The notes: generated from the letters alone by a model not told the origin. A stretch of 64,000 nucleotides of DNA from an uncultured Victivallales bacterium (GCA_934644965.1 CAKUDG010000016.1:1180-65179), one strand, 5' to 3'. Counted from the first letter of the stretch, positions 8,098 to 64,000 are shown. Made by a program: numbers and translations.

Positions 8098-8243
8098 CCT
8101 GCGGAAATTCCTCATCCAGCAGAACAGGTCTGATCTGGAACTGAGTTTGAAAGTCTGTTATGCCTCCGCCGCTGCGGCTCTGATGGTTTCCGCTGCGACG
8201 TTTCCTCTGAATCTTCCGTCCGGGAGAAGGCGTGTGCTCTTTC

Positions 8244-31950: not shown

Positions 31951-31973
31951 GTCCGTGCGCTTTCCGTGAACGT

Positions 31974-33891: not shown

Positions 33892-33987
33892 AAAATCCGC
33901 TTTGAGGAGTATCTTTCCCGGAGCCGCGCCGCAGGAATCACCGCCGCCGGAAGAACGGAGAAGAGAAAAGGAAGAAGGTGTCAGAAT

Positions 33988-34476: not shown

Positions 34477-34523
34477 ACACAGAAGAAGAAGAAAAGAAAA
34501 AAAGACAGGATTCAGAAATTCAT

Positions 34524-47024: not shown

Positions 47025-47453
47025 ATGGATACAAAAATATTCGGAGTGGTTGTCAGGGTCCGCAACCTGGAACTTTGCAGAGCGTTTTACAGGGACGTCC
47101 TTGATTTGGGGACGCCTCTGCTGGACAGCAATTTCTGGGTGGAATTCCGTCTGGGCTCGTCGCGTCTCTGCCTGGAAAAAATCGAGTGGGAGGACGAGTC
47201 CGCTCCCAAAGAAGATCAGGGAGGGGAATCTTCTTCTTCCTCCTCCGGCATTTCCTGGATTCTCATGGTGAAGGATCTGGAGGATTTCGCCAACCGGATC
47301 GCCGCCTATGGATATGCCGCGGAATCGAAGGCGTGCGACAGTTTCGGCTTTTCACTGCTCCGCTTCCGGGATCCGGAAGGCAATCCGTTTCTTGTATCCG
47401 CGGAAAGAACACCCAATGCCGGTCGGGAAACCGGGAAAGGAACTGGTTTATGA
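47025..47453 (+). CDS. VOC / glyoxalase-bleomycin resistance family protein
   Basis: FGVVVRVRNLELCRAFYRDVLDLG and the C-terminal FRDPEGNPF pattern. Confidence 0.7.
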   Translation: MDTKIFGVVVRVRNLELCRAFYRDVLDLGTPLLDSNFWVEFRLGSSRLCLEKIEWEDESAPKEDQGGESSSSSSGISWILMVKDLEDFANRIAAYGYAAESKACDSFGFSLLRFRDPEGNPFLVSAERTPNAGRETGKGTGL

Positions 47454-48643
47454 AGACAAGCTTTACTGTTGTTGTCCGGAGAGCACGCATTTCCGTTTTT
47501 GCGGCGTTCTGCCTTATCTTTTCCAGCATGATGATGTTTCCGCTCCTTGCAGCAGCGGGGCAGTCCCGTCAGATTCTGTCCAATGTGCCGGGGGATTCGG
47601 GGTCACTGCTTGTAGTTGACTACGGAAAGCTGAAAGAGTCCCGATTCTTTGAACAGATCCGCGCCTCCATGCCGGAGGAAACGAAGAAGGTGCTGGAACA
47701 GTATGTGGAAAAACTCCAGAATGCAGGGATTTCCGTCAATCCCGGCAGAATCATTCTTTTTGCCGAGGATCTGTTGTCCGATACGACGGGCGGAGGCGTC
47801 CTTCTGGAATCTTCCGTAACCGCCGGACAGATTGAAAAATTCCTGAGGGACAATCATCTTATCGGCGAACCTTCCGCTTCCTTTCAGGTCCTTTCCGTGG
47901 AAGGCAGGAAGACCTTTGTCCTGAATCCGGCTGCATTGAAGAACGGTCTGAATACGGGCGCTGTGCTTCCCCCTGCTTCTCCGGACAGCCTGTCCATCAC
48001 ACCCATGGAGAACGGACAGATCCTTCTGACGGACAAAGCTCATCTTCCCGCGATTCTCCAGTCCCCGAAAGGCAGCCCCGGTAAACTGGGGGAGGCGCTG
48101 GGCATTCTGGATATGGATTCCATGATCTACGGGGTGATTGTTTCAGAAAAGCTGGCGGTCTATGGGAGGAAACTGGATCCCGGAATGGCGGGAGGCGGCA
48201 GCGGCGGGACAGCTTCTTCCAATGGCGCTTCCCTTGCGGGAGGAATCAAAGCACTTTTCTTCTGGGGGAATCTTACGGGGGAGGATCTCTCGGGATTTGA
48301 AGGAAACCTGGTCTTTGTCGCAGGAGACAGCGAAACCGCCGCCCGTTCCGTTGCAATGCTTCAGCAGAGTTTCCTCATTCTCATGATGGCTCTTGGGCAG
48401 GATCCGGAAAGTCAGGAACTCTCCACTCAGCTTTTATCGGCGGTCAGCATTTTCGGGAAAGAAAACCTCATTCAGATCCGGGTGAACTTTCCGGAGGAAC
48501 TCCTGAAAAAGATTGCCCGGCTTGCGGAAAGTGTTCTGCCGCAGAATTTCGTGGGAGATGTCATGGAGCCTCTTTCTGCACCTCTGCCTTCTTCAACTGC
48601 TCCGATCAAAGCGGTGACTCCTGCAGGAGAAGGAGGAAAATAA
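47450..48643 (+). CDS. Hypothetical secreted protein (397 aa)
   Basis: Signal peptide RRARISVFAAFCLIFSSMMMFPLLAAAG. ATGA overlap with the VOC gene stop at 47450-47453 was verified. Confidence 0.65.
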   Translation: MKTSFTVVVRRARISVFAAFCLIFSSMMMFPLLAAAGQSRQILSNVPGDSGSLLVVDYGKLKESRFFEQIRASMPEETKKVLEQYVEKLQNAGISVNPGRIILFAEDLLSDTTGGGVLLESSVTAGQIEKFLRDNHLIGEPSASFQVLSVEGRKTFVLNPAALKNGLNTGAVLPPASPDSLSITPMENGQILLTDKAHLPAILQSPKGSPGKLGEALGILDMDSMIYGVIVSEKLAVYGRKLDPGMAGGGSGGTASSNGASLAGGIKALFFWGNLTGEDLSGFEGNLVFVAGDSETAARSVAMLQQSFLILMMALGQDPESQELSTQLLSAVSIFGKENLIQIRVNFPEELLKKIARLAESVLPQNFVGDVMEPLSAPLPSSTAPIKAVTPAGEGGK

Positions 48644-48915
48644 GTTTCCGCGGCGGGAAAGGAAAGAAGGGAGACACAGGAAAGAAGGAAGGCGGGAAGT
48701 CTTCCGCGCCTTCTTCTTTTCCCCCAGCTTCCCCCAACTTCTCATTTTCCGTTTCCGACGCGAGGAAGGCGGGATGCGGGGAGAGGAAGGGTGACGACAC
48801 CTCTTGATGAAATTACAGAGGCGGAACTTCTTCCTTTCTTTCTTTTATGCCGCCTTCCGATGAAGGAAGAACCCCGGCGTCGTATGATTTCAGTTCATCC
48901 ACATGCTGTTCCGGT

Positions 48916-51156
48916 TCATTCACGTTCCGGCAGCAGTTTCCAGATCCGGGACTCCCGCGCCTTCAAGACGAGATCTCCGGCTTTTCTGCCGTTGACAAAG
49001 ACCGTCGTGGAGTGCTTGCGATCCAGCTCGTTTTCGATGCGGATCTCGCCCTTTTGCCAGTCGGCGGAAAGAATTCTGACGCAGTCCAGCCCGAAGGCAT
49101 GGCGGAGATGCGTGTTGACGGCGACTCCCCCGAATTCCCGCAGGATGCGCCCCAGATACAAATAGAGATCGATGAAGAGGGAATAACTGTTTTCGGCGTG
49201 ACTGTGTTTGTAAAGACCGGATTCATCGTCCATCTGGGGATTGTTTTCAAAGATGCTGTACAGGATTTCGTTGCGGTGGGGGTTGCCTTCGAGACTTTTT
49301 TCATCGCGGAACACCATGGTCTGTCGGAAGGCGGCGATTCCGCGTTCGGCATACACGGCTTTGCCAGTGGCCCTGTAAAGACGCATCAGCAGATAGCCCA
49401 CCCAGGCGACGGATTGATTTCCCGTTGCCGTGCACTGGGTCCGGGCGTAGTCCGGCCAGGGATAGTAGCTTGTGGCCATCATTCCCCGCGATTTCCAGTG
49501 AACGGAATCATAAAAGGATCCGGGAAGATTCGGCACGTTGTAGCCCATCTGCATGATGTTCCCGAACAGCTGGACCTTTTCCGCCGCTTCCAGCCAGCGG
49601 GAATCTTTCTCCTGATCATAAAGATCCAGAAATGCCCGGAGCATAGTTCGGTAGCCGTCCACGTCCCAGAAGTCCGGGTAGTCGGTTTCACATCCGCCCA
49701 TGGAAAAGAGGCCCTGCTCCTCCAGATCCAGGAGACAGCGCCCGGCGGTTTTGAGATAGGCGTTGCGCAGACGTTCATCCCCGGTGGCCTGATACAGTCT
49801 GATCAGCGCCGGGATCCATGCCTGCGTTTCGGAATACTGGCTGATCCAGCCGGGCTTTTCCTTCGGGCTCAGATCGGAATGATACAGGCGCCGGAAATGA
49901 CCGTCCGGCTGCTGGAGCTTCAGGACGTCTTCCAGAATGTCGAACGGATAAGGAGTTTTGAACAGGGTTGCGTCCTGAAAATAGAGATCCATGGCGTCGC
50001 AGATCATTTCCGGGAGCGCCAGACTGTCCAGCGCATCGGGTTCAAAGGGAGCGCCCCAGCCCGTTTTCTCGCAGAAGGGGATGATGTCTTTCATGAAGCT
50101 TCCCGTATGGAAGGGATAGGTCAGTCTGGAACTGCCGGCGAAATGATGGTACAGATAGAAATGAATCAGTCTTTCCGCACGGTCGCGGTCTTCTTGGTTT
50201 CCTGTCAGCCGATGGCGCCGGTAGAATTCCCCCGCCTTCAGGAGGTCGTATTCCAGCCAGGAACAGCCGAACTGGTCTTCGGGACGGAATCCGGTGTTGA
50301 ACTGTCCGAAAAAGTCGGAGAAGTAATGCGCGGCGTAATGATCGGCCTCCTTCTCGCCCCGGAGTTCCGAACGTTTCCAGATCGTGGTGACTTTGGTCGA
50401 AAAATCCTCCATATCGGTCTGCGGCGTGTGAACCGGTGAGGGATCAAGACGCCAGAGCACATTCGAGAGATGTCCCGCATGTTCCTCTCCCCCTTTGCCG
50501 AAAAACCAGAAGAAACGCAGATCAAGCGGTCCGTCCACTGCCTCGCGCAGGCGGAACACATGCGCCAGATCCGTATCCTCCCGTTCCGTTTCGGAAATCC
50601 GGTCGAGATCCGTTTCAAAGTACGCCTCCCCGAAATAGAGATGTCCGGAGCAGGTGAAGAAAATCCGGTTGTTTGCCGCCCTCGCCAGATAATCGCTCCA
50701 GTCCTTCTGAAACGGATAGGCGCCCTGATTCATTTTGCGCGAAATCCATTTGTAGGAGACGTAGGTGAAGTCTGCAACAGGGCCTTCGTTGAAATAGCGG
50801 GTGCGGAACTGTGCATCGCCGCCGTGACGGTAATGAATGTCGCGGACGAAATAGAGTTCGTTTTCCTCCGCGTCAAAGGCCGGATGAATCCTTTCCCCGC
50901 CCGAATCCCGGACGATCTGAATCCCCCCGCCGCTCCTGTGGACGGCGGAAACATTCCCGAGATCCGCTTCCGCCTTCCTGCGCCATAAACCGCGTTCCAG
51001 AACATACCCCTGAAGACGATTCCCCGTGACGATGAGCGCTTTCTCCCCTTCGACAATCCCCGCCTGATATTCAGGCAGCTCCTCCAGACGAAGGGTTCTT
51101 GCCTCCCTGGCATAGTTCAGAATCTTTTCCTGGCGCGCTGCAATCTGTTCATTCAT
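48916..51156 (-). CDS. Large cytoplasmic protein, probably an alpha/alpha-barrel (six-hairpin) glycoside hydrolase-like enzyme
   Basis: 746 aa with protein-like composition and no signal peptide. The C-terminal half has repeated aromatic/helical hairpin-like segments (QAWIPALIRLYQATGDERLRNAYLKTA; WVGYLLMRLYRATGKAVYAERG). The fold call is inference. Confidence 0.6.
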   Translation of the reverse strand: MNEQIAARQEKILNYAREARTLRLEELPEYQAGIVEGEKALIVTGNRLQGYVLERGLWRRKAEADLGNVSAVHRSGGGIQIVRDSGGERIHPAFDAEENELYFVRDIHYRHGGDAQFRTRYFNEGPVADFTYVSYKWISRKMNQGAYPFQKDWSDYLARAANNRIFFTCSGHLYFGEAYFETDLDRISETEREDTDLAHVFRLREAVDGPLDLRFFWFFGKGGEEHAGHLSNVLWRLDPSPVHTPQTDMEDFSTKVTTIWKRSELRGEKEADHYAAHYFSDFFGQFNTGFRPEDQFGCSWLEYDLLKAGEFYRRHRLTGNQEDRDRAERLIHFYLYHHFAGSSRLTYPFHTGSFMKDIIPFCEKTGWGAPFEPDALDSLALPEMICDAMDLYFQDATLFKTPYPFDILEDVLKLQQPDGHFRRLYHSDLSPKEKPGWISQYSETQAWIPALIRLYQATGDERLRNAYLKTAGRCLLDLEEQGLFSMGGCETDYPDFWDVDGYRTMLRAFLDLYDQEKDSRWLEAAEKVQLFGNIMQMGYNVPNLPGSFYDSVHWKSRGMMATSYYPWPDYARTQCTATGNQSVAWVGYLLMRLYRATGKAVYAERGIAAFRQTMVFRDEKSLEGNPHRNEILYSIFENNPQMDDESGLYKHSHAENSYSLFIDLYLYLGRILREFGGVAVNTHLRHAFGLDCVRILSADWQKGEIRIENELDRKHSTTVFVNGRKAGDLVLKARESRIWKLLPERE

Positions 51157-51298
51157 GATTTCCCTCCCGGGTGCATTTCTCAGAGAGATGTCTTTCTCGG
51201 GTTTCCGCCGCCATCCTGTTTCCTCCTTTCTTCTCCTCCGCAGGGGGTCCGAGGGGAAAAAAGGAGGGAGCGGGGAGGTGGAGAATTCCTTTGCGGGC

Positions 51299-53737
51299 TC
51301 AGCGGAAAGTCAGTGTCCCGAACTGCGTATAATTGTGATTGTTCCCGATCGACATGGTCGATCCATGATACTGGTTCGGCAGAGAAGTGATCCGGCTTCG
51401 GACAAAATTGCCGTGCCAGACATCGCCCGCGGAAGGAGGATCCACCTTCAGCGATTCGTACGGGATGAACATTTCAAGACTCCAGAAATCCTTCCCGACA
51501 AAAACCGCGGACTGGAAATCCGCCACCTGTTTCATGTACGGAGTCCCGATGGGCGCCACCGTCCGGCTGCCGAACCACTGTTCGTTTCTGGTGTCGACGG
51601 CATACTGGTGATAGCGCGTGATTTCTTTTCCCGGGGCAAGGAAGACTTCCACCGTGTCATTTTCCCAGATGTCGCCTTCGGTCTTGATCACAGGGGCGTA
51701 TCCCATCCGGAAGGCCAGGTAGAGACCTTTCTTTCCGTAGAGCATCTTCATGCTCAGACGGGGATCCTCCTCAATCGGATAGCCGTTCGGGTGAAAGACC
51801 GGCATGTCCGGCGTGGAGGACCAGACCTTTTTCGAAAGTTTTCCGTCGATAGTCATTTCCCCGTCCCCGACCTTTGCGACGGGGTAGTCCGGGCGTTGGA
51901 AGCGGATTCGTGCCATCTGTCCGTAAATGGCCTTGTTCCAGGGTTCGGCCAGCACCCGGAAACGTTTCATTTCCACGGAATCCGGAGCAAGTTTCTTTTC
52001 CGCCTCATGGAGGAGTTTCTGTATTTTCTCCAGCGATTCGAGCGGATAGAGAGCATCCCGGTTCTCAGTGGCGACCACATATTGTTCAAAACAGCGGATC
52101 AGTTCGTCATGGAACTCCTTCAGGAGCGGTCCGGCCTCGGGGCCGTAAAAGAGGTTCCAGTGTTCGTCGATGGCCGCCTTTGCGTTGAAGTTTGGATTCC
52201 ACAATCCGCGGTACATGGTGTATGCGGAAAAATAATAGCACCATTCAAAATGTCCGTAGAAATCATAGAAGACTTCCGTCCGCCCGAATCCGAGCGAGCG
52301 GATGGCTTCGGCCGTGTATTCCGGGGCCACGGCGCGTGCGAAGACGTTGTTCGGAATTCCGTAAAACCAGGCGCTGCCCACGGGATGGCCCAGGACTTCC
52401 TCCCAGGCCTGGATCCGTTTCTGCCAGCCTTCACGGACTTTGGGGTTGCGGATCATGCCGGGGATGTCTCCGGTGCAGATCTGGAGTTCCACGTTGTCCG
52501 GCCAGTTGCGGTAGCGTTCGAGAGTCGGGGGGGTGGAGTAGGAGGCATAGGCCATCAGGCTCAGACGCGTTCCGGGAAGTTTTTCCTTCAGCTTCTGCGC
52601 AAGATGCTTGTGAAATCTTGCATAGAGATTGGGATAACTGCTTCCGACTTCTTTGAATACGCTGTGGTCGCGCAGATCCGTGATCGGGATTTCGGCATCG
52701 CACTGGCCGAAGGTGACAAAATCCGCATTCGTCTCCCGGGTCTGACGGTTTCCCCAGAGCTTGCTCTTCCCGTTCTGGAGGAGCTGAACCCATTCTTCCA
52801 CAATGGCGTCGGCAAGTTCCAGATTGGTGATGTCCATGAGCGGGATTCCGTTTCCTCCGACTTCGGCGGGAGCGTAGAGCGTCCCGTTCGGAGCCTTGTA
52901 GAAGAATTCCCGGACTTTGTCCGGAAAGGCCTTGATGAGCATGGGAGCATGCGGGTTGTGGACGGCGCGGTAGCGCAGGGCTGTGCCGGTCCGGAAGACT
53001 TCGTGCATGCGGTTTGGTTCGGGGATCGCCTTTCCGATCTCTTCGGGGAGTCCGGCGATGGGTTTCTGGTAGTCCTTGCCGAAATACTTTTCCCAGCGCA
53101 CCTTGTTGTCGTATCCGAACGCCGTGGCAATGAACCAGCCCTGTTCGCGGTTGATGACATAGGGTTCGTCCCTGTAACGGGCGGGCGAGATGCTCAGGTC
53201 CCGGCAGGCGGGCCAGACGGAACCGATTTCAGTCGGCATGAAGAAGCGGCAGCCCAGATAGCGTTCGATAAAGTCGTAGACTCCGAAGACGGTCCCCGTG
53301 CTTTTTCCCGCAATGACCACTCCTCCGGGGAAGGTTTTCAGTTCAAACCCCTGTACCGGGATCTGTTTCATGTTGATCCCCTCAGTGCGGGCGTATTCGG
53401 AATCGCCCAGAAAAATCATCTTCTTTTCCCTGTTTGAGGCGACTTCCTCCGCTGTGCTCAGAAGGGCGGGGATCTTTCCCGTACAGCGCCAGAAGGCTTC
53501 GCGCAGGACTTCCGCCGCCCTGCGGTAACGGGGGGCTTCCGGAGCTTTCGGATCAAAATACACCGCAAATTGCAGTTCTCCGTCCTTCACGAGAGTGAGC
53601 GGGGGATGAGGATCCGCTTCCAGAACCCGGACCGGATTCAGAGCCGGATTCTTCAGCGGGGTGACAGCCCCTTCCGAAGCATGGAGAACAAAAACGGAGA
53701 GGAGCAGAAGACAAAAGACCGTCAGAGTAGATTTCAT
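51299..53737 (-). CDS. DUF4838 domain protein with C-terminal CBM9-like carbohydrate-binding module, secreted
   Basis: Signal peptide MKSTLTVFCLLLLSVFVLHA. The core is paralogous to 56525-58626. The C-terminus has the CBM9/DOMON-like pattern (IDGKLSKKVWSS...DTVEVFLAP...YHQYAVD...WSLEMFIPYESL...GDVWHGNFVR). Confidence 0.8.
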   Translation of the reverse strand: MKSTLTVFCLLLLSVFVLHASEGAVTPLKNPALNPVRVLEADPHPPLTLVKDGELQFAVYFDPKAPEAPRYRRAAEVLREAFWRCTGKIPALLSTAEEVASNREKKMIFLGDSEYARTEGINMKQIPVQGFELKTFPGGVVIAGKSTGTVFGVYDFIERYLGCRFFMPTEIGSVWPACRDLSISPARYRDEPYVINREQGWFIATAFGYDNKVRWEKYFGKDYQKPIAGLPEEIGKAIPEPNRMHEVFRTGTALRYRAVHNPHAPMLIKAFPDKVREFFYKAPNGTLYAPAEVGGNGIPLMDITNLELADAIVEEWVQLLQNGKSKLWGNRQTRETNADFVTFGQCDAEIPITDLRDHSVFKEVGSSYPNLYARFHKHLAQKLKEKLPGTRLSLMAYASYSTPPTLERYRNWPDNVELQICTGDIPGMIRNPKVREGWQKRIQAWEEVLGHPVGSAWFYGIPNNVFARAVAPEYTAEAIRSLGFGRTEVFYDFYGHFEWCYYFSAYTMYRGLWNPNFNAKAAIDEHWNLFYGPEAGPLLKEFHDELIRCFEQYVVATENRDALYPLESLEKIQKLLHEAEKKLAPDSVEMKRFRVLAEPWNKAIYGQMARIRFQRPDYPVAKVGDGEMTIDGKLSKKVWSSTPDMPVFHPNGYPIEEDPRLSMKMLYGKKGLYLAFRMGYAPVIKTEGDIWENDTVEVFLAPGKEITRYHQYAVDTRNEQWFGSRTVAPIGTPYMKQVADFQSAVFVGKDFWSLEMFIPYESLKVDPPSAGDVWHGNFVRSRITSLPNQYHGSTMSIGNNHNYTQFGTLTFR

Positions 53738-53762
53738 AAACATTTGCATCCTTTTCTGGATC

Positions 53763-54596
53763 TTAGAGTTCAATGACAAGGCCGTCGTATGCGGCCTCGA
53801 TTCCGAAGGGCTTGAAAAAGGCGTTGAACTCAGCCTGAGTCCCGCCTCCGTTGTGGGAAAAATGGGTTGCCAGACAGCGGCTTCCCGGATTCAGGCAGCC
53901 CATGCCCCGCAGTTTTTCCCATGTCTCTGCGACGGCCTTTGCGCCCATGTGCCCGGAACGTGCGTCGGGATAGACCAGTCCGCAGGTGCAGTCCAGAATC
54001 GCAAGATCGATGGACTTCCCTTCCAGCGCCCGCCATGTCTGTTCCGGGAACCATCCGCTGTCGTTTCCGATCAGGACGCTTTTCCCATTCCGGGAAAGCA
54101 GGTACAGGAGCGCCTGTCTGCCTGCCGCGTGCTGCGCGTCCAGTGCGAAGATCTCCAGCTTGTTTTCCGTTTCACAGCGCCGATTGTGTCCCATCGGGTG
54201 CGGGATCAGCTTCAAATCCTCTTCCAGGCTCAGAAGTGCGGAATCCCTTGCGCAGAAGGAAAGAATCTCCGCAAAGGACGGCGGCGCACCGTACAGGGAG
54301 ACCGGATGCGGGACTTTGCTGAACCATTCCTTTCTCCAGAGGAATTCAAGAGGGCTCAGATGATCTCCGTGGGGATGAGTCAGAATCACCTGGCGGATGC
54401 GGGAAAGGTCAATTCCGAATTCGGTGATCTGCCAGTGGATGTCAGGGCCGAAATCCACCAGGGTGTCATCGTCGATGAGATAGGCGGCGGTCCGGCGGAT
54501 TTCCCTGTTTTTCCGTGCGGTTCTGCAATATGCGCATTCGCACCAGATGGCGGGATAACGTTCCGCTGCGGCTGTGCCGAGCACTTGAATTTTCAT
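53763..54596 (-). CDS. MBL-fold metallo-hydrolase (PhnP/RNase Z-like subgroup)
   Basis: ILTHPHGDHL (HxHxDH) and an N-terminal CxxC (CECAYC). The start MKIQVLG at 54596 was verified. Confidence 0.8.
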   Translation of the reverse strand: MKIQVLGTAAAERYPAIWCECAYCRTARKNREIRRTAAYLIDDDTLVDFGPDIHWQITEFGIDLSRIRQVILTHPHGDHLSPLEFLWRKEWFSKVPHPVSLYGAPPSFAEILSFCARDSALLSLEEDLKLIPHPMGHNRRCETENKLEIFALDAQHAAGRQALLYLLSRNGKSVLIGNDSGWFPEQTWRALEGKSIDLAILDCTCGLVYPDARSGHMGAKAVAETWEKLRGMGCLNPGSRCLATHFSHNGGGTQAEFNAFFKPFGIEAAYDGLVIEL

Positions 54597-54642
54597 CTTG
54601 CTCCTTTCGCTCGTTTCATGATCCCGGATCCGTTTTCTTCTC

Positions 54643-55410
54643 TCAGAAGCCGGGGTATTGTTCCGTGATGACGCGTCCGCCCTGAATGGAGGGATTGGGG
54701 CAGCCCCAGACAAACCATGTCCAGTAATTCCAGGTGTTGAAATTGGGGTCATAGGCGGAAGTCGGCAGAGTCGGCAGAGGACGCAGCTCCGCATGCCCGT
54801 CCATAAAGAAGATGTTGCAGCTGAAATCATGACGGAAGGCCGGAGCAGGACAGTATTCCGACAGCAGCGTTTCCCCCTTCCCGAAAATCACATTGCTGTT
54901 TGAAAAAAAATTGACGGAATTGATTTCATCCCCCTTGTGCTCCGCCAGAAGAAACGTGTTTCCCGGCCGGGAAAAGGCGTGCCGTTTTTTGACATATTTC
55001 TGTTTCTGCCACGGCTGGTCGTACATATTTTCCCCCGTGCAGATGCCGACCTGATTGTATCCGTATCCCAGGCGCGGATCCCGGAATTTCTTCATGCTCG
55101 GGCAGAGCCTGATTTTTTCGAGTTTCACGTCCCGCAGGAAATATATCATCCAGAAAATGGTATTGTCGATGCCGTTTGTCGAGTATCCGTAATGCGGGAA
55201 ACAGTCGTCATAGCCGTTGGCGTACATGTGGAATTCCAGACCGATGTTCCGGATCTGGTTTTTGCAGGAGAGTGCGATCGCGGTCGCGCGGGCCTTGCCC
55301 AGGGCGGGAAACAGAAGAGAGGCGAGAATCGCGATTATGACGATCACAACCAGAAGCTCGATCAGCGTGAACAGGCTGTGCCTTGAGTCGATCATTCTTT
55401 TCATTTTCAT
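54643..55410 (-). CDS. Prepilin-leader / H-X9-DG (DUF1559-type) pilin-like protein
   Basis: [26 protein letters not shown]; [13 protein letters not shown]. Confidence 0.85.
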
Positions 55411-56195
55411 GGTTTTCTCTGATATTTTTTTATGAGGTAAGGCAAGGTCTCTGTTACAATCCGTTCCAGGTGGGGCAATGGCTTTGTTGCCGCCGAGGAA
55501 ATAGGTGCGGGTTACGGCCTCCACATCCTGGCCGACTTGTCTGTCCGGCAGTTTGAAAGCGGGAATCAGTTCGCAATGTCCGTCCCCAAATGCAAAATTG
55601 GCGGAGAAATTGTTGTGACGGTATCCGACGCTGTTGCTGAGCGGCCTGTTTGCCAGCAAATCTTCCGTCCGAATCAGATGGCAGACATTCTGCGAGTTCC
55701 TTAAAACGTATTCATTCAGATGACCCCAGTTTTCAGCACAGATCGTTATCTGCTGCGGTTTTTCAGGACGGAAATCCTGGAATAGACTTTCGGTTTGTCG
55801 GTTTTTGCCATGCCCTGATGGTTCAACGTATAGGAATGGTTGGCCCAGGAAAAGAGCTTCAGCGGATGGTCCGGACACTGGAGTAGTTTGATCTCCTTCC
55901 GGCAGTAACGCGTATAACTGGCATAAGCTCCCGGTATCCCGGGAAGACTGACAAAAAACTCCCATGGGGAAAGCGCTTTGAATAGTCCGTTGTCATCTAT
56001 GGCAAGCGGGAAACTGTCGTCAAAGTCATTGGCATACTGGAGAGTGAACAGCGCAAGCGTTTTCACATTGTTCATGCAGTGAATGCCGCGGCTTGCACCC
56101 GCCGCCTTGGAGAGCGAAGGAAACAGAAGGGAGGCGAGAATCGCGATTATGGCAATCACAACCAGCAGTTCGATCAGCGTGAATTTCCTTCGCAT
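55411..56195 (-). pseudogene. DUF1559-type pilin-like gene disrupted by a frameshift and lacking its own stop in the C-terminal frame
   Basis: The N-terminal part ([28 protein letters not shown]...) is in ORF 55746..56258. The H-x9-DG part ([14 protein letters not shown]) is in the frame of ORF 54643..55965. The switch lies near 55770-55810 (A5 runs). That frame reads without a stop into the next gene's ATG at 55410. Confidence 0.7.
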
Positions 56196-56524
56196 CCTTC
56201 TGCATAACAGTAGATTATCGTCGAAGAGAGAACTGCTGAAGAAAAAGTTCCGTTGCATGTTTCCTGCCTTCCTTTCTGTTGATGGGACTGTCTCTGCCTG
56301 AAAAAGCCGGCATGCTCATGCTGATCCATGATGTTTTTTTGCATGCTGCCCCCCTCGGCGTTGTTCTTTTTTTCCGTTTTTTTCTTGTCGTTGCTCTGTT
56401 CTTTCCTTCCGGGGAGAGTGTGTGCGATTATGCTGAAAATCAAAAAGGAGCTGTTCCTGCTTCCGTGTTGTTGGTGTTGTAGTGTTGCTGGTATCCGATT
56501 TCCTTTTTTTCTGCAGCTGTGATT

Positions 56525-58626
56525 TTACTTGCCGCCGTCTTCCCGGGGCGGTGCCGGGAGAGGGGGGCGCTCGGGGGAGTTTTTCCGGTGAAGGTTCCGC
56601 TGTGCGGCAATGGCTTTTGACCAGGGTTCGGCAAAGACGCGGAAGCGTTTCAGCTCCATGGGGGTGTTATCCTGTTCCTTTTCCATTTCTTCGGAGAGGA
56701 GAGAAGTGTCCTCGCCGATGGATTCTGGTTCGGAGAGGAGATCCAGAGCGTCGATTCCCGGTTCCTGTTTTCCGGCCTGAGAGGGCGGTGTTTTTCCAGC
56801 AGCAGCGGTACTGCTGTTGTCTCCGAGAATGCTTCCGGCTTTTTTCAGAAGAGCTTCCAGACGATCCAGCACCTCGGGCGGGAAAGGCGCCCTCTGATTG
56901 CCGGATGCGGAGATGTACTTGTCATAACTCTCCGTCAGGACCTTGTGGAATTCCTTGAGGAGTGCTCCCGCCTCCGGTCCGTAGAAGAGCTCCCAGTGCT
57001 CGTCAAGTGCCGCCTGAACATTGAAGTCCGGATTCCAGAGACTCCGGTACATGACATAAAATGCGTAGTAGTAACACCATTCCAGCGAACCGTAGTAATC
57101 GAAGAAGACTTCGAGACTGCCCGCTCCACCGAGCTGCCGAAGAGTCTCTCCGGTCAGGGAGGGGACCACGGCCCTCGCAAAGGGATTCAGCGCTTCATTG
57201 TAGAGCCAGATTCCCGCGGCGCTCCGGCCTCCGAGGACTTCCTGCCAGTCGCGGAAGAGTTTCTGCCAGCTTTCCCGGGTGGGTGTATGACGGATCAGTC
57301 CCGGCAGGTTTCCGGGGCAGATCTGCACATCCACGTTGTCCGGAAAGCGGCGGAACTCTTTGCTTGCGGGAGGACGCTTGTAATTGGCGTAGGCAATCAC
57401 GGAAAGACGCGAATCCGGGCATTCTTTCTTCAGACGTTCGGCCAGCAGGATTGTGAAGCGTCCATAGATTTCACCGAATCCGTTGTCATGATCCAGAAGC
57501 CCGAGTTTCTGCACGGTGGGGTCAGCGCGCATGTCTTCAGTCCTCACATCCGAATCGCATTGCCCGAAGGGGAGGTATTCTCTGCTGGGGACGATGTCTC
57601 CGTCCTCGAAAACGGATTTTTCTCCATGGAGGAATTTTTTGTATTCCGCAACAAGCATGTCCGCCAGCAGCGGATTTGTGACATCGAAATAACTTCCTGT
57701 GGAACTTCCGTTGTAGTAAAGCTTTCCTTCCGCCGACCGGAAAAAGAATTCCTTCATCCGTTCTGGATATGCCTCCGCCACATTTTTCGGCGCAGGCATG
57801 TGGAGTGCCCGGTACGGCACCTGAATCCGGAAGCGCCAGGATCCCGCCATCCGTTCTGTTTCGGAAATGGGGGGATTCCTTTGCCGGTGGGCAGAGGACC
57901 TCCGAGGTTTTCGGTCTGGAAGAGAGCGTTCCAGCGCTGAGTTTCCGTGAAACCGGTGGATAGGAAATAGCCCTGATTGACATTCTGGATCCGGGGATAA
58001 TCCGAATAGGACATCGGGCGGAGTGTCAGGTTCCGGATCTGCGGCCAGATGCTCCCGAATTCTCCCGGCAGATAGATCCTGACCCCCAGAAACCGTTCGA
58101 TGAAATCGTAAGCCGCATGCACTGTCCCGGCAATCTGTATTTTCCGGTTCTTCCCGTTTTCATGAAATCCGGGCACATGGCTGGAGTCAAAGCCCAGCAG
58201 ATAGACCGCGTTCCCTGACGTGTGGACGAGAAATCCGCCCCTGGGCAGCAATTCGCCCTTCAGCTGTTTCCTCTCTGCGGCATCCGTTTTGCCGACATAG
58301 ATCATGGTTTTGAAATATCCGGTCTCATTGGGGGACGAATGGTTTTCCACGAAGAGTTTCGGAATTTTCCCAGTGCATCGGAAAAACGCATCTCTCAATA
58401 CATTCGCGGCTTTTCTGGCTTCCGGTCCTCCTTTCAGGCTGATCATCACGGCAAAGGATAGTTCACCGTTCCTGACGAGTTCCAGATCCGGATGGGATTC
58501 CGCCTCCTGCACGCTGACCGGGAGCAGTGCGGGATGGAAAAGGGGATCGTTTGAAACGGGGACCTTTCCTGCAGCGGAAAGCAGCAGGGACAGACAAAAA
58601 AACAGGATGGAAAGTCTTCTTCGCAT
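56525..58626 (-). pseudogene. DUF4838 paralog split by a frameshift near 57851-57875 (no CBM9 tail)
   Basis: ORF 57754..58707 aligns by eye to the N-terminal third of 51299-53737 (FAV...GKIP...AYDFIERFLGVR). ORF 56525..57850 aligns to the middle part (YRALHMPAP..., ICPGNLPGLIRH, EWCYYYAFYVMYRSLWNPDFN, MELKRFRVFAEPW). The junction IPPFP / ERM corresponds to IPEPNRM in the paralog. Confidence 0.7.
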
Positions 58627-58829
58627 GGGAACATACTCCGGATTGCTTTTTTCATCGCTTGCCTGGTACATTGCAGGTATAATAAATGATGCCTCAGAAT
58701 TTGTCAACCCCTTTTTTTTGTTTTTTTTGCATATTCCTTTCAGAAAAACAAAGTTGAATGCTTGAGATATTGCATGCTGAAGCTATAGTACCCCGGTATG
58801 CTTGCGATAGACCTGCGGAGATGGAGTCA

Positions 58830-59978
58830 ATGAGTGCCTTACAGCGCATGAAGCGGGATGTGATTTTTGAATGGCTGCGAGAGCGGATTGTGTCGGGTTT
58901 TTATCCGGCGGGGCTCCGTCTGCCTATGGAACGGGATCTGGCGCAGGAATGTTCCGTTGCCCGCGGAACCTTGCGGAACGCCTTGCAGATGCTGGAGGAA
59001 GAGGGGTTTCTGGAACGGATCCGGGGGCAGGGGACTTTTGTTCGGAATCCAGTCCATGGGAAACGCCGGGATCCGGGAAAGGTCCTCAGCATTCTTGTCC
59101 CCTGCGCGGATTATCTGACCGTTTCCGATCTGTACCAGAGAAGACGCGAACAGCAGTACTGGACCGCCATCCTGCGCGCCGCCCGGGAGTGTGCCTGCCG
59201 GATCGAGACCATTGAATTCTCCCCGAGCAATTCCCCAGATGATGTGGACTGGAAGGCCTTGAAAAGATTGACTTCGGAAAGCAGGGTGATTATCTCCAGT
59301 CTCTGGTATGAGAAAGCGTTTGAATTTCTTGCCGAGAGGCATGTGAAAGTCGCGTTGATCCGTATGCGGGATTTTGACCTGGAACGTTATCAGGGCATCT
59401 TTGCAAACTGGATTGATTTCTTTTATGATTCCCTGGATTCAAGCTGCCTTGCAGTCAAAAAGCTTCGTTCGCTGGGCTGCAGGAGAATCGCCAATGCCGG
59501 GAGATACGTCCTGGACCGATACAACAACAAGACCATCGGATATCAGCGTGCGCTTGCCGGAATGGCGGGAATGCCGGAAGGCGGATTGAACATCGACATT
59601 TCATCGGAGGACTGCTGTTGCGAGTCCCTGCTGCGGACCAGAATTTCTGAAAGCTGGAATCAGATGCATTTTGACGGGCTCTTTTTTGAAAACTGCGATT
59701 ATTCATTTGATCCGCGTTTTTCTTTGAACCGAAACCTCGGTATTCCGGAACATGTCCGGATCATCTCCTTTTTCGACACGCCGCAGAATCTGCAATACCG
59801 TCCTCAGATCAGCGCGCTGGAGCACAATGTCCCGGGCGGTTTCTATGAAATGACAAAACTTCTGCTTGCGGAAGAGTATATTCCTCTTCACAAACGCTTT
59901 GACATGACCTTTTTCAACCGGGAATCCACCGGAGGCGCCTATCAGAAGCCGCCGCACCAGGGAGTTCCGCTGTTTTAG
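58830..59978 (+). CDS. GntR-family HTH regulator fused to a LacI/periplasmic sugar-binding-like effector domain
   Basis: LPMERDLAQECSVARGTLRNALQMLEEEGFLERIRGQGTFV (GntR wHTH), then a ~300-aa PBP-type domain. The start could be 58821 or 58830 (SD spacing favours 58830). Confidence 0.8.
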   Translation: MSALQRMKRDVIFEWLRERIVSGFYPAGLRLPMERDLAQECSVARGTLRNALQMLEEEGFLERIRGQGTFVRNPVHGKRRDPGKVLSILVPCADYLTVSDLYQRRREQQYWTAILRAARECACRIETIEFSPSNSPDDVDWKALKRLTSESRVIISSLWYEKAFEFLAERHVKVALIRMRDFDLERYQGIFANWIDFFYDSLDSSCLAVKKLRSLGCRRIANAGRYVLDRYNNKTIGYQRALAGMAGMPEGGLNIDISSEDCCCESLLRTRISESWNQMHFDGLFFENCDYSFDPRFSLNRNLGIPEHVRIISFFDTPQNLQYRPQISALEHNVPGGFYEMTKLLLAEEYIPLHKRFDMTFFNRESTGGAYQKPPHQGVPLF

Positions 59979-60296
59979 ATCTGGTCTTTCCCCGCATTCT
60001 TTTCTCTGGAGACGCTTCCTCATCTTCATCCGGATCCGTTTTCTCCCGGGGAAAAACAAGCCTTGAAGGAAGACTTGCCTCCGCAAGAACTCCCCTCTTC
60101 ATCCGTGTTTTCTTTGAAGAATTTCCTCCTGAAACACAGAAAAACTGCCGCTTTTTTGCTTCCCTAACCTTGACAAATTGCAGAAATCAGATATAATTCA
60201 GGGAATGTGCTATAACGATTGTGCAAATATGACATGTTTCCCTCTGAAATTTCCGTGCTTCAGTCAGGGGGACAATGAAAAAGGAAGGTTTTAGAT

Positions 60297-61175
60297 ATGT
60301 CCGGGACAGGAGACAGGTGCAAAAGAGGAAGAACGGATTATTTGTTTTGCTCATTTACATTGATTGAACTGCTCGTAGTCCTTGCTGTGATTGCAATTCT
60401 GGCGTCACTTCTTCTTCCTGCTCTGAGGACAGCCCGCGAGTCGGTGAAACAGATCACCTGCCTTGGGAACCTGAGGCAAATCTATTTCGGATTTGAATGT
60501 TATGTTTCGGACAATCAGGAATATTTTCCTCCGGGAGGAGGCTCATCATACGCCACATGCGATTTCAGCAAGGGGGCGAGAGAAGTCATAAGCGGTACGG
60601 ATTTTGCATGGCAGGAAATCATCGCGGAATATCTGGGAACGCATCTGGACATCAGATCCTGGAGTTTGACGAGTCAGACGATTCTGGAAAACCAGCATTT
60701 CTGGAGCCGTTCATCCATCGTGCACTGCAGCAGTCTTCCCTCCGACAGCATCATAGAAAAATACAGCGCACCGGGGATTCCTCCGAACAGAAGGAGTTTC
60801 TATTACGGCCCCACTTATAAAATGAACGGTCCTCTCTCCCAGGCCAAAAGGAGCCGTTTGCCGGCCATGCGCACCAGAAGATACCTCCTGGTGTCGGAAG
60901 GCTCCGACTATGACACGACTCTGTATGTGGAATCCTTCCCCGGAGTCAACCGTTCCGGAGGAACTTATTGAACAGGAGTTTTCCTGGAAGACAAAAACGA
61001 CGGACGCCATAACTCCCAGACAAACAATTTGTACATGGATGGATCCGCAGCCTCCATGAGCAGCAGTGAAAAATGGAAGGAATATTCCGAAGGATGGGCA
61101 AAGAGACAGGAAAATATTTACTACAAAGGACAGATCTTCCCCTCCAGTGCGGAAAGAATCGCCCTCTGCCGTTAA
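60297..61175 (+). pseudogene. DUF1559-type pilin-like gene with a single in-frame TGA at 60969-60971
   Basis: The leader [24 protein letters not shown] is in ORF 60297..60971. The same reading frame continues after the TGA as TGVFLEDKNDGRHNSQTNNLYMDGSAAS (H-x9-DG) to a TAA at 61173-61175. The total of 292 codons is similar to intact paralogs. Confidence 0.7.
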
Positions 61176-61687
61176 ACAAAGAATTCGTTGACAGTTTTTC
61201 TTTTCCCCTCCCGGGAAGAGAAGGAACGTTCAAAAGCGGAAAAAACAGCCCGTCTGAAGAAAACAAAACGAAACAAAAAAATAAAAAGAAAAAAAGAAGT
61301 CCCCGTTCAAGATGCCGGGGAAGCTGATTTTGACAGAAACAAGCCGGGCACGTCCTTACCGGAAAAGCGGTGAGGTGACAATAGGATGAGGATGCCCTGG
61401 GCTCTATGATTTCTGCAAGAAATCTTCCCTTCAATCAGAAAAGGAGAAAAAACAGAAAGATCCTGAAACTCAAGAATTGAACCCCCGCCCGGATCTGATT
61501 CCGGGACCGGATAATCCGTCCTGGTCCAGACGTTTCGGGCGGAATCTTTCTTTTCCCGTCCCCCAGGCTGAGGGCTAAGACGGAAAAAGAAGGTTTATCC
61601 GCACCCTGCCTGTTTCCGCGGACGATCCTGATCCGATGGGAAACTCGGCTTGAATGATTGATTGCTTAACACGCAGAGGAAGACAGA

Positions 61688-63637
61688 ATGAGGGAAAAAC
61701 AACAAATTCAGCTGTGGATTTTTGCCATATTGACGGCATTGTCGCCGATTCTGACGGCACAAGTGGAGACAGTGCCGGAATCGGAGTTGAAACGTTATGA
61801 AGCGATGCTGCCGGAGCTTGCCGGGAAGGCGAAGGGGCCTCTTGCCGGACATTTGAAAAAACTCTCTGCAGAGCAGCAGCGAGGGAAACGGGTGAATGCG
61901 CTTCGTGTCGCCCTGGATTCCATGGAAAACGGAGTTGGAACACGTCCGCTGATTCATTATGCCGTTCCGGCTCTTTCGGACGCCCAGTATCTGCCGGACG
62001 CCTATCCGTATAACGGCCGTCCGATGGCGCCCGTGCGGATTATCGCCGCACGGGGAGAATATGAACCGGGCTCTTTCATCCTGTATCCTTTTTCGGATCT
62101 GGGACGCGTGGAGCTGAAGCTTTCCCCTTTGAAAACGGCGGACGGCGTGGTTTTCCCCGTGGCGAAAGCGGATCTGAAAGTGGTCAAGGTCTGGTATCAG
62201 GACAAGAATGCCTGGTACAGCTATTTCGGCGACCAGGAGCTGAAACTCGTTCCGGAGCTGCTGCTGAATGACGAAGACTTGATCAAGGTCGATACCGTCA
62301 CAGAAAACAATTATGCGCGTCTGACGGAAAAAGACGGCAGCGTTTCATACCGCTGCATCACTCCTCCGATGATCCTTGATTCCGTCATGATGGACCAGCC
62401 GCGCCGGGGATCCGATGCACCCGTATTCCGTCCGATGAAGGAAAATTTCCAGGATGCGCCTGTCTTGCAGCCCGTCACTTTGAAATCAGGAGAATTCAAA
62501 CAGTTTTTCCTGACCGTGCAGATCTCTGAAGATGCCGTCCCCGGGATTTACCGGGGAACTGTCCATGTTGAGAAAGACGGTTCGCTTCTCGCGGACATCC
62601 CATTGGAACTGAAGATTCTGCCGTTTGTCCTTCCGAAACCGAAAACCTATTTCGCTCCCGACCGCAATTTCATCGTGTCTTCCTATTCTTATTTTGACTA
62701 TAACAGCATCATGAGGTGGAACGGGGGAGATTATGATCTCGCCGTCAGACAGCTGAAAAGCATCCTGAAAAACCTGGCCGCGCATAATCAGGACGTATAC
62801 TGGCTCCGAGGGGACTTCTACTCCAGAGAACTCCGCGATCAGTACGAAGCCATGAAAGAGGCCGGTATGAGGACAGACATCATCTTCGGCTCCTCCCCCC
62901 GGAACGGTCCGGAGTGGATGCTGAAACAGGATGTGGCGTCCGCAAAAAAATATGCGCTTGATCATTTCGGGCATGTCAACGTTTACCTGGGCTATGGCGA
63001 TGAACCGAACGGACAATGGCTGATGAATGCCAGAAAAGTGCATCATGCCTACCAGAAGGAGGGATTCCGCTTCCTCATGGCAGGATGGGATTCGCTCTTC
63101 CACAAGGCGGGCTATCTTTATGACTGGGTCAACTCCGCCGGGGCTCCGGAACAGCAGAGAGACCGCGTCCGGCGATGGAATGAAATCGGTCATGCCAATG
63201 TCGCGTGGTATGCCACTCATCATGAGGGAGTGGAAAATCCCTCCTTCAGCAGGAGACAGAACGGACTGGCTCCCTATCTGAACAATTTCAGCGCGCTCTG
63301 CAACTATGCGCATGCTCTCGGACCATGGAACGACCGTTCGCACACCTACCGGAATATGACCATCATGTACGGATGTTATGACGGCGTGATCGACACTCTG
63401 GCATGGGAAGGCTTCCGGGAAGGGATTGATGACATCCGTTATGCCACGCTTCTCAGGCAACTGGCCCTGGAAGCCTCCCGTTCCGGAAACATCGACACCG
63501 CTTATGCCGGACGCATCTCACTTTATTATCTTGCCTCCCTGAATCCGGAAAGCGTCGACCAGGACGCCGCAAGGATGGAGATGATTCATCACATTCTGAA
63601 ACTCCGTACTCTTCTCGGAAAGGAAAAACAGTCATGA
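61688..63637 (+). CDS. Secreted putative glycoside hydrolase (DUF4091 / GH123-like)
   Basis: Signal peptide IQLWIFAILTALSPILTAQV. An N-terminal beta-sandwich-like block with AARGEYEPGSFILYP, then a TIM-like region. The family call is from memory and moderate. GAGGAAG SD lies upstream. Confidence 0.6.
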   Translation: MREKQQIQLWIFAILTALSPILTAQVETVPESELKRYEAMLPELAGKAKGPLAGHLKKLSAEQQRGKRVNALRVALDSMENGVGTRPLIHYAVPALSDAQYLPDAYPYNGRPMAPVRIIAARGEYEPGSFILYPFSDLGRVELKLSPLKTADGVVFPVAKADLKVVKVWYQDKNAWYSYFGDQELKLVPELLLNDEDLIKVDTVTENNYARLTEKDGSVSYRCITPPMILDSVMMDQPRRGSDAPVFRPMKENFQDAPVLQPVTLKSGEFKQFFLTVQISEDAVPGIYRGTVHVEKDGSLLADIPLELKILPFVLPKPKTYFAPDRNFIVSSYSYFDYNSIMRWNGGDYDLAVRQLKSILKNLAAHNQDVYWLRGDFYSRELRDQYEAMKEAGMRTDIIFGSSPRNGPEWMLKQDVASAKKYALDHFGHVNVYLGYGDEPNGQWLMNARKVHHAYQKEGFRFLMAGWDSLFHKAGYLYDWVNSAGAPEQQRDRVRRWNEIGHANVAWYATHHEGVENPSFSRRQNGLAPYLNNFSALCNYAHALGPWNDRSHTYRNMTIMYGCYDGVIDTLAWEGFREGIDDIRYATLLRQLALEASRSGNIDTAYAGRISLYYLASLNPESVDQDAARMEMIHHILKLRTLLGKEKQS

Positions 63638-64000
63638 AAAAAGCACCGTTTCCATGTTTCCTTTTTCTCTGCCTCCTCCTCGGCAGTGTTCTGCCATGCA
63701 CCTTGAAAGGGCAGAGCGCTGAAGAAAAGCAGAAACAGCAGATCCGGATCATAGAACAGGAAAGTCCGGGAACAACACTTCAGGAGAGGATCAAGGTTTT
63801 CCGGAATTATGCGGATTCTCTTGCGGGAAACCGCTATCAGGCGCATCAGCCGGTTGATACGCTGTACCGCCTGGCCGATCTGCTGATGAGACATCCGGAC
63901 TTGACAGGAAATGAGATCTTTCAAATTCAGCAGACGCTCTGGAAAGCCGCAAAAAATGTCGAAGACCATGAAAAACGCCTGGCTGCAGCCGATCTTGTGA
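63634..64000 (+). CDS. Secreted hypothetical protein, 3'-truncated by the window end
   Basis: ATGA overlap with the upstream stop (63634-63637). MKKAPFPCFLFLCLLLGSVLPCTLKGQ signal peptide. The frame is open to position 64000 (translated by hand, no stops). It is not in the ORF track because it has no stop. Confidence 0.65.
   Translation, partial: MKKAPFPCFLFLCLLLGSVLPCTLKGQSAEEKQKQQIRIIEQESPGTTLQERIKVFRNYADSLAGNRYQAHQPVDTLYRLADLLMRHPDLTGNEIFQIQQTLWKAAKNVEDHEKRLAAADLV

Follow-up and report, generated by a model that had tools for sequence, protein, structure and literature searches.

The final part of a 64,000-nt stretch of DNA from an uncultured Victivallales bacterium (the window, in which all coordinates below are counted) holds the locus studied here, 48916-64000, where two divergent arms of genes flank a regulator. 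It is a gene cluster for glycan degradation in an uncultured gut bacterium of the Lentisphaeria (Victivallales-type), built from a cassette that is standard in this lineage. The cassette consists of a pilin-like gene placed just upstream, and on the same strand, of a gene for a signal-peptide-bearing glycosidase; the arrangement is tight, oriented and at the level of the operon, and it extends over at least ten enzyme families. Taken on its own, the locus is an ordinary, partly decayed cluster of carbohydrate-active enzymes (CAZymes). Among genome records at species level the nearest is that of 'uncultured Lentisphaeria bacterium ERR321547-bin.2' (L004), which is 95.4% identical over window 41323-63706. 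The genes and promoter-like sites of the locus are listed here with the evidence for each.

48916..51156, minus strand: candidate cytoplasmic enzyme of 746 aa (AlphaFold2 (AF2) fold; no Pfam model)
51299..53779, minus strand: secreted DUF4838 protein with a C-terminal module like CBM9, a carbohydrate-binding module (CBM) family (PF16126 6.9e-16, PF06452 1.5e-6)
53763..54596, minus strand: metallo-beta-lactamase (MBL)-fold hydrolase, 277 aa (Lactamase_B_2 1.5e-14)
54643..55410, minus strand: pilin-like gene B, 255 aa, intact (N_methyl/TIGR02532)
55411..56195, minus strand: pilin-like gene A, disrupted (three-frame translation; comparison with L004)
56525..58626, minus strand: secreted DUF4838 paralog without CBM9, frameshifted (PF16126; alignment of its open reading frames (ORFs) to the 826-aa paralog)
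58679..58707, minus strand: promoter-like site TTGACA-17-TATTAT, 11/12, before the DUF4838 paralog and the minus-strand arm (consensus match only)
58762-58789, plus strand: 10/12 sigma-70 match upstream of the regulator start
58830..59978, plus strand: AraR-type regulator with a GntR winged helix-turn-helix (wHTH) and an effector domain of the LacI/periplasmic-binding-protein (PBP) type (GntR 2e-17; family profile)
60170..60197, plus strand: perfect 12/12 sigma-70 consensus TTGACA-16-TATAAT, 100 nt upstream of pilin C
60297..61175, plus strand: pilin-like gene C with an in-frame TGA (three-frame translation; comparison with L004)
61688..63637, plus strand: secreted protein of 649 aa, remotely GH123-like (family profile against GH123 structures)
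63634..64000, plus strand: signal-peptide protein of which only the start is within the window (794 aa in L060; faint TPR matches)

The order of genes and the domain calls that a first-pass annotation of this DNA had given for the two arms are borne out, except that three of the genes are broken. As it had also stated, ABC transporters and phosphotransferase systems (PTS) are missing from the Pfam matches of all ORFs of 48.9-64 kb, and so are adjacent SusC and SusD, by which a Sus-like polysaccharide-utilisation locus (PUL) is defined. The gene at 63634 and the GH123-like gene share 4 nt, where the start of the one meets the stop of the other.

Pairing of pilin-like genes with glycosidase genes

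Pairing was scanned in the six frames of 49 loci anchored on a DUF4838 gene, where an FTLIELL-type motif was counted as pilin-like if its ORF continued for 100 or more codons beyond it. Per 10 kb there are 2.56 such motifs at up to 1 kb from the anchor, as against about 0.39 at a distance of 3-10 kb, a rate ratio of 6.6 (binomial p=2.6e-8). All pilin-like matches within 3 kb lie on the strand of the anchor (33/33), and 32/49 loci have one. In the usual layout a pilin-like gene of about 250 aa stands upstream of the DUF4838-CBM9 gene with -4 to 60 nt between pilin stop and enzyme start, though larger gaps occur occasionally, and in about eight loci a homologue of the window's regulator stands ahead of the pair. 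Other pilin-like genes in the flanks precede genes for CBM4_9+CBM9, Laminin_G_3, GH20 (two cases), GH2, GH123_cat, heparinase II/III-like and F5/8+CBM9 proteins.

The second approach started from homologues of pilin B on long contigs and inspected the genes downstream. These loci include GntR-pilin-GH123 in a Victivallis genome assembly, pilin-GH5, pilin-GH42-like, pilin-GH84, GntR/PBP-pilin-GH39-GH1 and LacI-pilin-GH42. In L063 the pilin-like gene is followed by a gene for an 803-aa protein of unknown family, both inserted between the ribosomal-protein and groEL operons, and two pilin B homologues are without such pairing. A sugar-sensing regulator of the GntR, LacI or AraC type often stands ahead of the pilin-enzyme pair, and several cassettes can fall within about 12 kb (L057).

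Downstream of pilin-like genes a CAZyme or CBM is encoded in 15/22 cases, compared with 4/45 among other genes of the same loci (Fisher p=1e-6), and 36/40 partners have a signal-peptide-like N-terminus. The heads of the pilin-like proteins follow their partners: with the conserved N-terminus removed, the best match of a head has the same partner enzyme class in 19/23 and 24/32 cases (p=3e-5). The first-pass annotation had linked the pilin-like genes, as DUF1559, to CAZymes, and had named two outcomes that would speak against the link, namely neighbours lacking CAZyme or carbohydrate-binding domains and an adjacency explained by the density of pilin genes. Since Pfam does find such domains in the neighbours and adjacency exceeds the local background, neither outcome was observed.

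The conserved unit is smaller than had been proposed, and the polysaccharide-utilisation-like locus described by the first-pass annotation is not one unit. Genes for the 746-aa, MBL-fold and 649-aa proteins co-occur with the cassette only in the near-identical relative, and a single conserved multi-gene PUL is ruled out because what recurs is no more than the pilin-DUF4838 pair, joined in some loci by the regulator. The phylogenetic reach is narrower as well. Among 80 metagenomic relatives, mostly environmental, the downstream genes examined for 33 are mixed and mostly small, with further DUF1559 genes, CarboxypepD_reg, sulfatase, FGE-sulfatase and one DUF4838. This heterogeneity rules out pairing as a general property of DUF1559 proteins in the Planctomycetota-Verrucomicrobiota-Chlamydiota (PVC) bacteria and limits it to the Lentisphaeria (Victivallales-type) clade. 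A fourth pilin-like gene of the window, at 8244-9113 on the minus strand (289-aa ORF), is not paired with a CAZyme: what follows it is a DinB-type polymerase gene (6991-8115) and one for an RNase T-like exonuclease (5941-6753).

The pilin-CAZyme cassette was not found described in the searchable full-text literature on Lentisphaerae, Kiritimatiellota and Planctomycetota; most subscription papers lie outside that search, and an earlier mention is possible.

Enzymes, regulator and surroundings of the locus

DUF4838 in both paralogs, the CBM9-like module and the MBL fold are all found by Pfam, as had been predicted. DUF4838 (PF16126) reaches 58.7 bits in the 826-aa protein and 54.2 bits in the C-terminal half of the paralog (cut-off 26.6). 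The 826-aa protein also matches CBM9_1 (PF06452) with 28.6 bits (cut-off 23.4) and PDB entry 1i82, the CBM9 of T. maritima Xyn10A, at E=0.0019; the module thus belongs to CBM9 by family score and by structure match. The probable start codon of this gene is at 53737, giving 812 aa, and a signal peptide is present. In GH163 (BT1035) and GH185 (Sp_0475) DUF4838 forms the catalytic domain, with D309/Y436 as catalytic residues of Sp_0475 (PMC10570127), and both proteins of the locus are predicted members of this GH163/GH185 beta-N-acetylglucosaminidase superfamily.

The founders of the two families, BT1035 as an endo-beta-N-acetylglucosaminidase acting on complex N-glycans and Sp_0475 as a 6-sulfo-beta-GlcNAcase, likewise carry DUF4838 followed by a C-terminal module of carbohydrate-binding type. 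The module is CBM9-like here but F5/8 type C in the founders. Relatives of the DUF4838-CBM9 gene occur in 49 loci, all of them in metagenome-assembled genomes of Lentisphaeria/Victivallales from gut, rumen and digesters. Because the closest relatives of the protein are Lentisphaeria proteins only, 30-41% identical, this clade may be a separate subfamily.

The MBL-fold hydrolase is encoded between pilin B and the DUF4838-CBM9 gene and is without a signal peptide; its PhnP/RNase Z-like NCBIfam matches are weak and far under the cut-offs. In an unrelated genome of Lentisphaeria type (L055 6687-9626) an MBL-fold gene (Lactamase_B_2 / Apyc1-like) likewise neighbours a pilin-like gene and a gene for a glycosidase-like protein (GHL10+DUF4985), which echoes the MBL gene of the window cassette (53763-54596).

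Sequence-level identification of the 746-aa protein failed, as searches of Pfam, NCBIfam and PDB (phmmer) were all empty, and only a fold can be assigned. The AF2 model (pLDDT 80, pTM 0.87) has an N-terminal beta-sandwich, an (alpha/alpha)6 barrel and a C-terminal beta-sandwich, in keeping with the alpha/alpha-barrel that the first reading had proposed. With Foldseek the best match is the polysaccharide lyase 5no8 (E=6e-9, TM 0.36-0.39), followed by GH94, GH65, GH95 and AGE-type (alpha/alpha)6 enzymes. The protein lacks a signal peptide, has 22 homologues that are all from Lentisphaeria/Victivallaceae and is encoded on several public metagenome contigs; the dN/dS of its gene against L004 is 0.12. 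A 47%-identical homologue (P0141 in L065-L067) stands in an amino-sugar context: ahead of it are genes for a NagA-like amidohydrolase, a Zn-ribbon membrane protein, an M28/M20 peptidase and an amidohydrolase of the creatininase family, behind it is one for a GntR+Peripla_BP regulator, and 6 kb upstream there is a DUF4838 gene.

For the 649-aa protein, described earlier as a secreted DUF4091/GH123-like protein, the likeness to GH123 stands and the DUF4091 part does not. Its GH123_N score of 17.7 bits is under the cut-off of 22, and with the single sequence the E-values against GH123 structures are 0.05-0.1. A profile of the family, which has 2537 representatives, matches the structures 8k2f (3e-12), 5l7v (5e-11) and 5fqe (8e-8) in an alignment that covers both the N-terminal beta-sandwich and the barrel. 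D438-E439 are nearly invariant/invariant in the family and align with 'ADE' of 8k2f. The closest known enzymes are the GH123 beta-N-acetylgalactosaminidases CpNga123 (5fqe) and BvGH123 (5l7v) and the beta-N-acetylgalactosaminidase entries 8k2f-8k2m, with which the family may share the sandwich-and-barrel layout and the Asp-Glu pair. Unlike GH123 proper, neither the protein nor any of 43 relatives matches GH123_cat (PF13320, formerly DUF4091), although 28/43 of the relatives match Glyco_hydro_123_N_2, and for this reason it is named GH123-like and not GH123. It is probably a remote homologue of that beta-N-acetylgalactosaminidase-type fold family rather than a member.

The regulator had been read as a GntR/sugar-binding protein, and this agrees with the GntR score and with an effector domain of sugar-binding type. 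The effector domain is detected only by a family profile: the profile of the protein and its four closest homologues matches PBP/LacI structures over positions 182-360 (3ctp 3e-7, the RbsR structure 3hs3 4e-4, 5ysz 1e-3). A GntR wHTH combined with a LacI/PBP-type effector domain characterises the protein as a sugar-responsive regulator of the AraR type.

The two DUF4838 proteins and the GH123-like protein, together with the NagA-like/amidohydrolase/GntR-PBP context of the 746-aa homologue, point to glycans containing N-acetylhexosamine (HexNAc) as the probable substrates. The DUF4838-CBM9 clade, the GH123-like clade without GH123_cat and the 746-aa (alpha/alpha)6 family are three candidate new CAZyme subfamilies.

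Both of the best promoter matches lie before an arm of the locus, which is suggestive only, as total counts of promoter-like sites and terminators in the region are not above those of shuffled sequence. A common operator palindrome was sought in the three promoter regions and none was found. Between pilin C and the GH123-like gene lies an A-rich spacer of low complexity, 61176-61687 (about 510 nt), far above the usual cassette spacing (0-60 nt).

The window genes upstream of the locus are ordinary ones and intact (RuvA, quinolinate phosphoribosyltransferase, YmdB, LD-carboxypeptidase, FHA-kinase, ROK and PfkB kinases, GH32 and PGI). ExbB and an adjacent small ORF are also upstream, at 31540-32693 on the minus strand, with the ROK and PfkB sugar kinases and GH32 at 32884-35546 and 22017-23411 on the plus strand. 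In L058 a similar ROK-ExbB-ExbD-TonB neighbourhood is found beside a GntR-pilin-GH39 cassette. Two ORFs called at 47025-48643 (plus strand; 142 and 397 aa in the near-identical contig L001), between the LD-carboxypeptidase and 746-aa genes, have no Pfam match and a low codon-usage score. Antisense 'shadow' ORFs of 530-861 aa lie opposite real genes at 51155-53437, 48847-50439 and 15707-18292, all on the plus strand; they are an artefact of codon composition and could mislead an ORF-based reading.

Broken genes and strain differences

The first reading had missed three lesions: in this strain the DUF4838 paralog and the pilin genes A and C are inactivated, which leaves only the string pilin B - MBL - DUF4838/CBM9 - 746-aa gene and the GH123-like gene intact. 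A frameshift in a C6 tract (plus strand: G6, 57869-57874) divides the DUF4838 paralog into two ORFs, which in alignment correspond to residues 13-253 and 270-633 of the 826-aa protein. Pilin A has a deficit of 1 nt beside an A5 run (55759-55763) and is cut after about 150 codons; its distal frame, with H-X10-DG inside, is without a stop codon and runs into pilin B. In pilin C an in-frame TGA at 60969-60971 stands ahead of the H-X9-DG. At the three sites L004 has C7, one additional nucleotide that makes the pilin A frame continuous, and TGC (Cys). The DUF4838 paralog is intact in L004 (732 aa) and in L061, both with C7. L004 has a frameshift of its own in the MBL-fold hydrolase gene (reverse-complemented 12465-13528, the orthologue of window 53763-54830).

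Both indels lie at or beside homopolymers, so that error was suspected. The same split genes occur in another record, the MEGAHIT contig L001, which is 99.996% identical to window 38916-61156, and the housekeeping genes of the window are intact. For the TGA of pilin C sequencing error is ruled out, because the truncated 224-aa product is encoded on at least seven contigs from at least two samples, L061 (99.88% identical) among them. The length of the C6/C7 tract differs between 99.9%-identical strains, with C6 in the window and L001 and C7 in L061. This could be on/off switching by slipped-strand mispairing, a very recent mutation, or sequencing error or assembly noise.

The dN/dS between the window and L004 is 0.08-0.49 over all genes and 0.14-0.26 in the broken ones. 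The similarity to intact genes indicates that the inactivation is recent and rules out long-term pseudogenisation. Identity to L004 over 41323-63706 is mosaic, with blocks of about 99% alternating with blocks of 90-94%. The former comprise the 746-aa gene, DUF4838-CBM9, MBL, pilin B, the N-terminal half of the DUF4838 paralog, the regulator and the 3' part of pilin C, and the latter comprise pilin A, the C-terminal half of the DUF4838 paralog, the 5' part of pilin C and the upstream NTP-transferase and kinase genes. This pattern suggests recombination between strains along the locus.

Pilin-like proteins and their possible role

The pilin-like protein of the cassette is 210-260 aa long and combines an invariant FTLIELLV...E5 segment and an H-X9-DG tail with a head that varies greatly. 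Pilin B has a leader of 13 residues followed by FTLIELLVV..., with Leu at -1 and H-X9-DG near the C-terminus; the tail motif is also H-X9-DG in pilin C and H-X10-DG in pilin A. Across 65 homologues the residues F, T, L, I, E, L, L and V do not vary. With a short basic leader, Phe(+1), Glu(+5) and a hydrophobic alpha1 helix, the proteins carry the class III signal peptide signature (N_methyl/TIGR02532), and their first 50 aa are GspG-like. TIGR02532 gives 20.6-22.5 bits in the window genes (cut-off 16.3). As to the DUF1559 identity proposed for them, the homology to such proteins stands: pilin B has more than 7500 homologues (E<=1e-3), and most of those among the best matches listed carry N_methyl and/or PF07596 or H-X9-DG names. 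Formal membership does not, as the window genes pass only N_methyl/TIGR02532. PF07596 (DUF1559/SBP_bac_10) stays below its cut-off in pilin B (21.3 vs 23.3) and is unmatched in pilins A and C, and TIGR04294 is not reported for the window genes.

Canonical prepilin peptidases require Gly(-1). In the window genes this position is occupied by K, L, S and K, Leu being the residue of pilin B and Ser that of pilin C. The four motifs start at 55371, 56183, 60354 and 9068. Gly(-1) is present in 1/54 Lentisphaeria relatives (loci L005-L059), which otherwise have almost any residue there while Phe(+1) and Glu(+5) are invariant, and in 11/65 of the wider homologues. Among environmental relatives G or A is found in 61/73. 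The combination of Gly/Ala(-1) with mixed neighbours in these relatives indicates that both the coupling to CAZymes and the loss of Gly(-1) are features of the Lentisphaeria clade. Without Gly(-1), processing or assembly may differ or may not occur.

The AF2 model of pilin B (65-sequence alignment, pLDDT 72) has a 50-residue N-terminal alpha1 helix and a small four-stranded beta-sheet with loops of low confidence. Foldseek against PDB gives nothing significant, the best match being gonococcal pilin 1ay2 (E=0.6). The model has neither a CBM-like nor a bilobed solute-binding fold, and a solute-binding-protein or CBM-like fold for DUF1559 is unsupported by the model and by Foldseek.

We infer that the pilin-like protein works with a machine of the type II secretion system (T2SS) or type IV pilus (T4P) kind encoded elsewhere, for export or surface retention of the cognate enzyme. 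The AraR-like regulator would sense a released sugar and de-repress both divergent arms, and the enzymes would cross the inner membrane by the Sec pathway. The co-expressed pilin-like partner would sit in the inner membrane by its conserved N-terminal segment, and the T2SS/T4P-like machine would use it to export the cognate enzyme or to hold the enzyme at the cell surface. HexNAc-containing oligosaccharides from host or dietary glycans would then be imported and finished by cytoplasmic enzymes, for which the 746-aa (alpha/alpha)6 protein and the MBL-fold hydrolase are candidates. As a whole, this account of a pilin-like partner and a T2SS/T4P-like machine serving glycan-degrading cassettes has, in our judgement, a little under an even chance of being right. 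In a planctomycete, T2SS-related proteins are induced by fucoidan (PMC11685898), which is compatible with the export model and not specific to it.

Several observations weigh against such a role. The Gly(-1) of a prepilin peptidase site is missing from the window genes and from 53/54 Lentisphaeria relatives, and no secretion or pilus machinery and no prepilin peptidase gene was found among the approximately 40 larger window ORFs scanned with Pfam. The model of pilin B is moderately confident and has no PDB match beyond the N-terminal helix. Three partner enzymes, two GH20 and one GH2, have no signal peptide, and the fourth exception is a dehydrogenase. The neighbourhood samples are loci and not whole genomes. 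On the enzyme side, the catalytic residues of DUF4838 could not be mapped and the PDB search gave no DUF4838 structure, GH123_cat is missing as described above, and the substrate assignment is drawn from homology at the level of families.

The first-pass annotation had proposed capture or presentation of glycans, in which a surface fibre or pseudopilus replaces SusD and the variable heads bind the glycan that the neighbouring enzyme cuts. A constant assembly segment with a variable head that tracks enzyme class, the tight operon coupling with extracytoplasmic enzymes and the lack of SusC/D at the locus would all suit this, and type IV pilins that bind cellulose or xylan exist in Ruminococcus albus and Caldicellulosiruptor. 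It is nevertheless unlikely, as the predicted head shows no lectin-like or CBM-like fold and has no PDB match, many of the partner enzymes bear CBMs of their own (CBM9, CBM4_9, F5/8), and Gly(-1) is missing here too.

The difference in Gly(-1) between Lentisphaeria and environmental relatives, and the short basic leader with its hydrophobic helix, would also fit an uncleaved bitopic protein of the inner membrane with a periplasmic head serving its enzyme as a chaperone, a docking site, or an oligosaccharide-binding or sensing component; Pfam classes DUF1559 as a solute-binding family (SBP_bac_10) (PMC2754498). This must be considered quite improbable because invariant F+1 and E+5 are the hallmark of pilin-type assembly and not of a simple anchor, the model of pilin B is not a bilobed periplasmic-binding-protein fold and the pairs are without a coupled transporter gene.

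Absence of any functional coupling, with pilin and enzyme genes duplicated and transferred as one or the pilin gene contributing no more than a promoter or leader, in a locus that decays in this strain, would agree with pairs inherited as units in unrelated contexts (L063), with three lesions in the window strain and one in the MBL gene of L004 and with the unpaired gene at 8244-9113, but it is very unlikely given that adjacency and orientation are kept down to about 30% enzyme identity across at least ten enzyme families and that a dN/dS of 0.12-0.49 implies purifying selection on pilin and enzyme genes alike.

Export or surface display with the help of the pilin-like partner might be part of a wider strategy. 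Lentisphaeria are glycan degraders of gut and rumen and are not known to have Sus-type systems. Victivallales-type Lentisphaeria might forage for glycans in a modular, Sus-independent manner, with nearly every secreted CAZyme coupled to its own pseudopilin-like adaptor that has a constant machine-docking N-terminus, a non-Gly cleavage site and an enzyme-specific head, and that pilots or tethers the enzyme through a T2SS/T4P-type apparatus. This generalisation is speculative and, on balance, rather doubtful. If true, it would open a first way to the function of the large DUF1559/H-X9-DG paralog families in PVC bacteria, and the pairing makes the function of these proteins a question open to experiment in the cultivable relative Victivallis.

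The cassette rule sits among known kinds of system, namely PUL-like clusters and T2SS pseudopilins. The pullulanase secreton of Klebsiella oxytoca is a type II secretion system in which pulA is regulated by MalT together with pulC-O. There, too, a secreted glycosidase that crosses the inner membrane by Sec is clustered with GspG-like pseudopilin genes and co-regulated with them by a sugar-responsive regulator. However, the pul cluster encodes a complete machine (ATPase, platform, secretin, peptidase and five pseudopilins), whereas in the cassettes an enzyme has a single pilin-like gene and genes of a machine are missing from the vicinity. In further contrast to the pul pseudopilins, the pilin-like proteins have highly divergent heads, carry an H-X9-DG tail and lack Gly(-1).

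In Sus-like PULs of Bacteroidota, too, glycosidases that are secreted or at the surface are under sugar control and come with a non-catalytic partner protein, and host-type glycans can be among the targets; BT1035 (GH163) sits in a Bacteroidota N-glycan PUL. In contrast to these, the cassette has no SusC/SusD and no lipoprotein anchoring, comprises two to three genes instead of a large locus and has a pilin-like partner. Pilin-type proteins are tied genetically or functionally to polysaccharide breakdown in cellulolytic Firmicutes as well, as with the glycan-binding CbpC/GP25 of Ruminococcus albus and the type IV pilins of Caldicellulosiruptor bescii beside a glucan degradation locus. Those belong to single canonical T4P operons with assembly genes, while here each enzyme has one pilin-like gene.

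The closest likeness in sequence is to the DUF1559/H-X9-DG proteins of Planctomycetota, which belong to the same superfamily (N_methyl with PF07596 or H-X9-DG) and show the same massive paralogy. DUF1559 is a large paralog family of unknown function (PMC10632474, PMC2754498), the largest in Planctopirus limnophila with 68 copies (PMC10632474) and present in 74 copies in Rhodopirellula baltica (PMC2754498). Environmental DUF1559 relatives have Gly/Ala(-1) and only occasional CAZymes downstream, whereas in the Lentisphaeria clade Gly(-1) has been lost and the genes stand in tight pairs with those of large secreted glycosidases.

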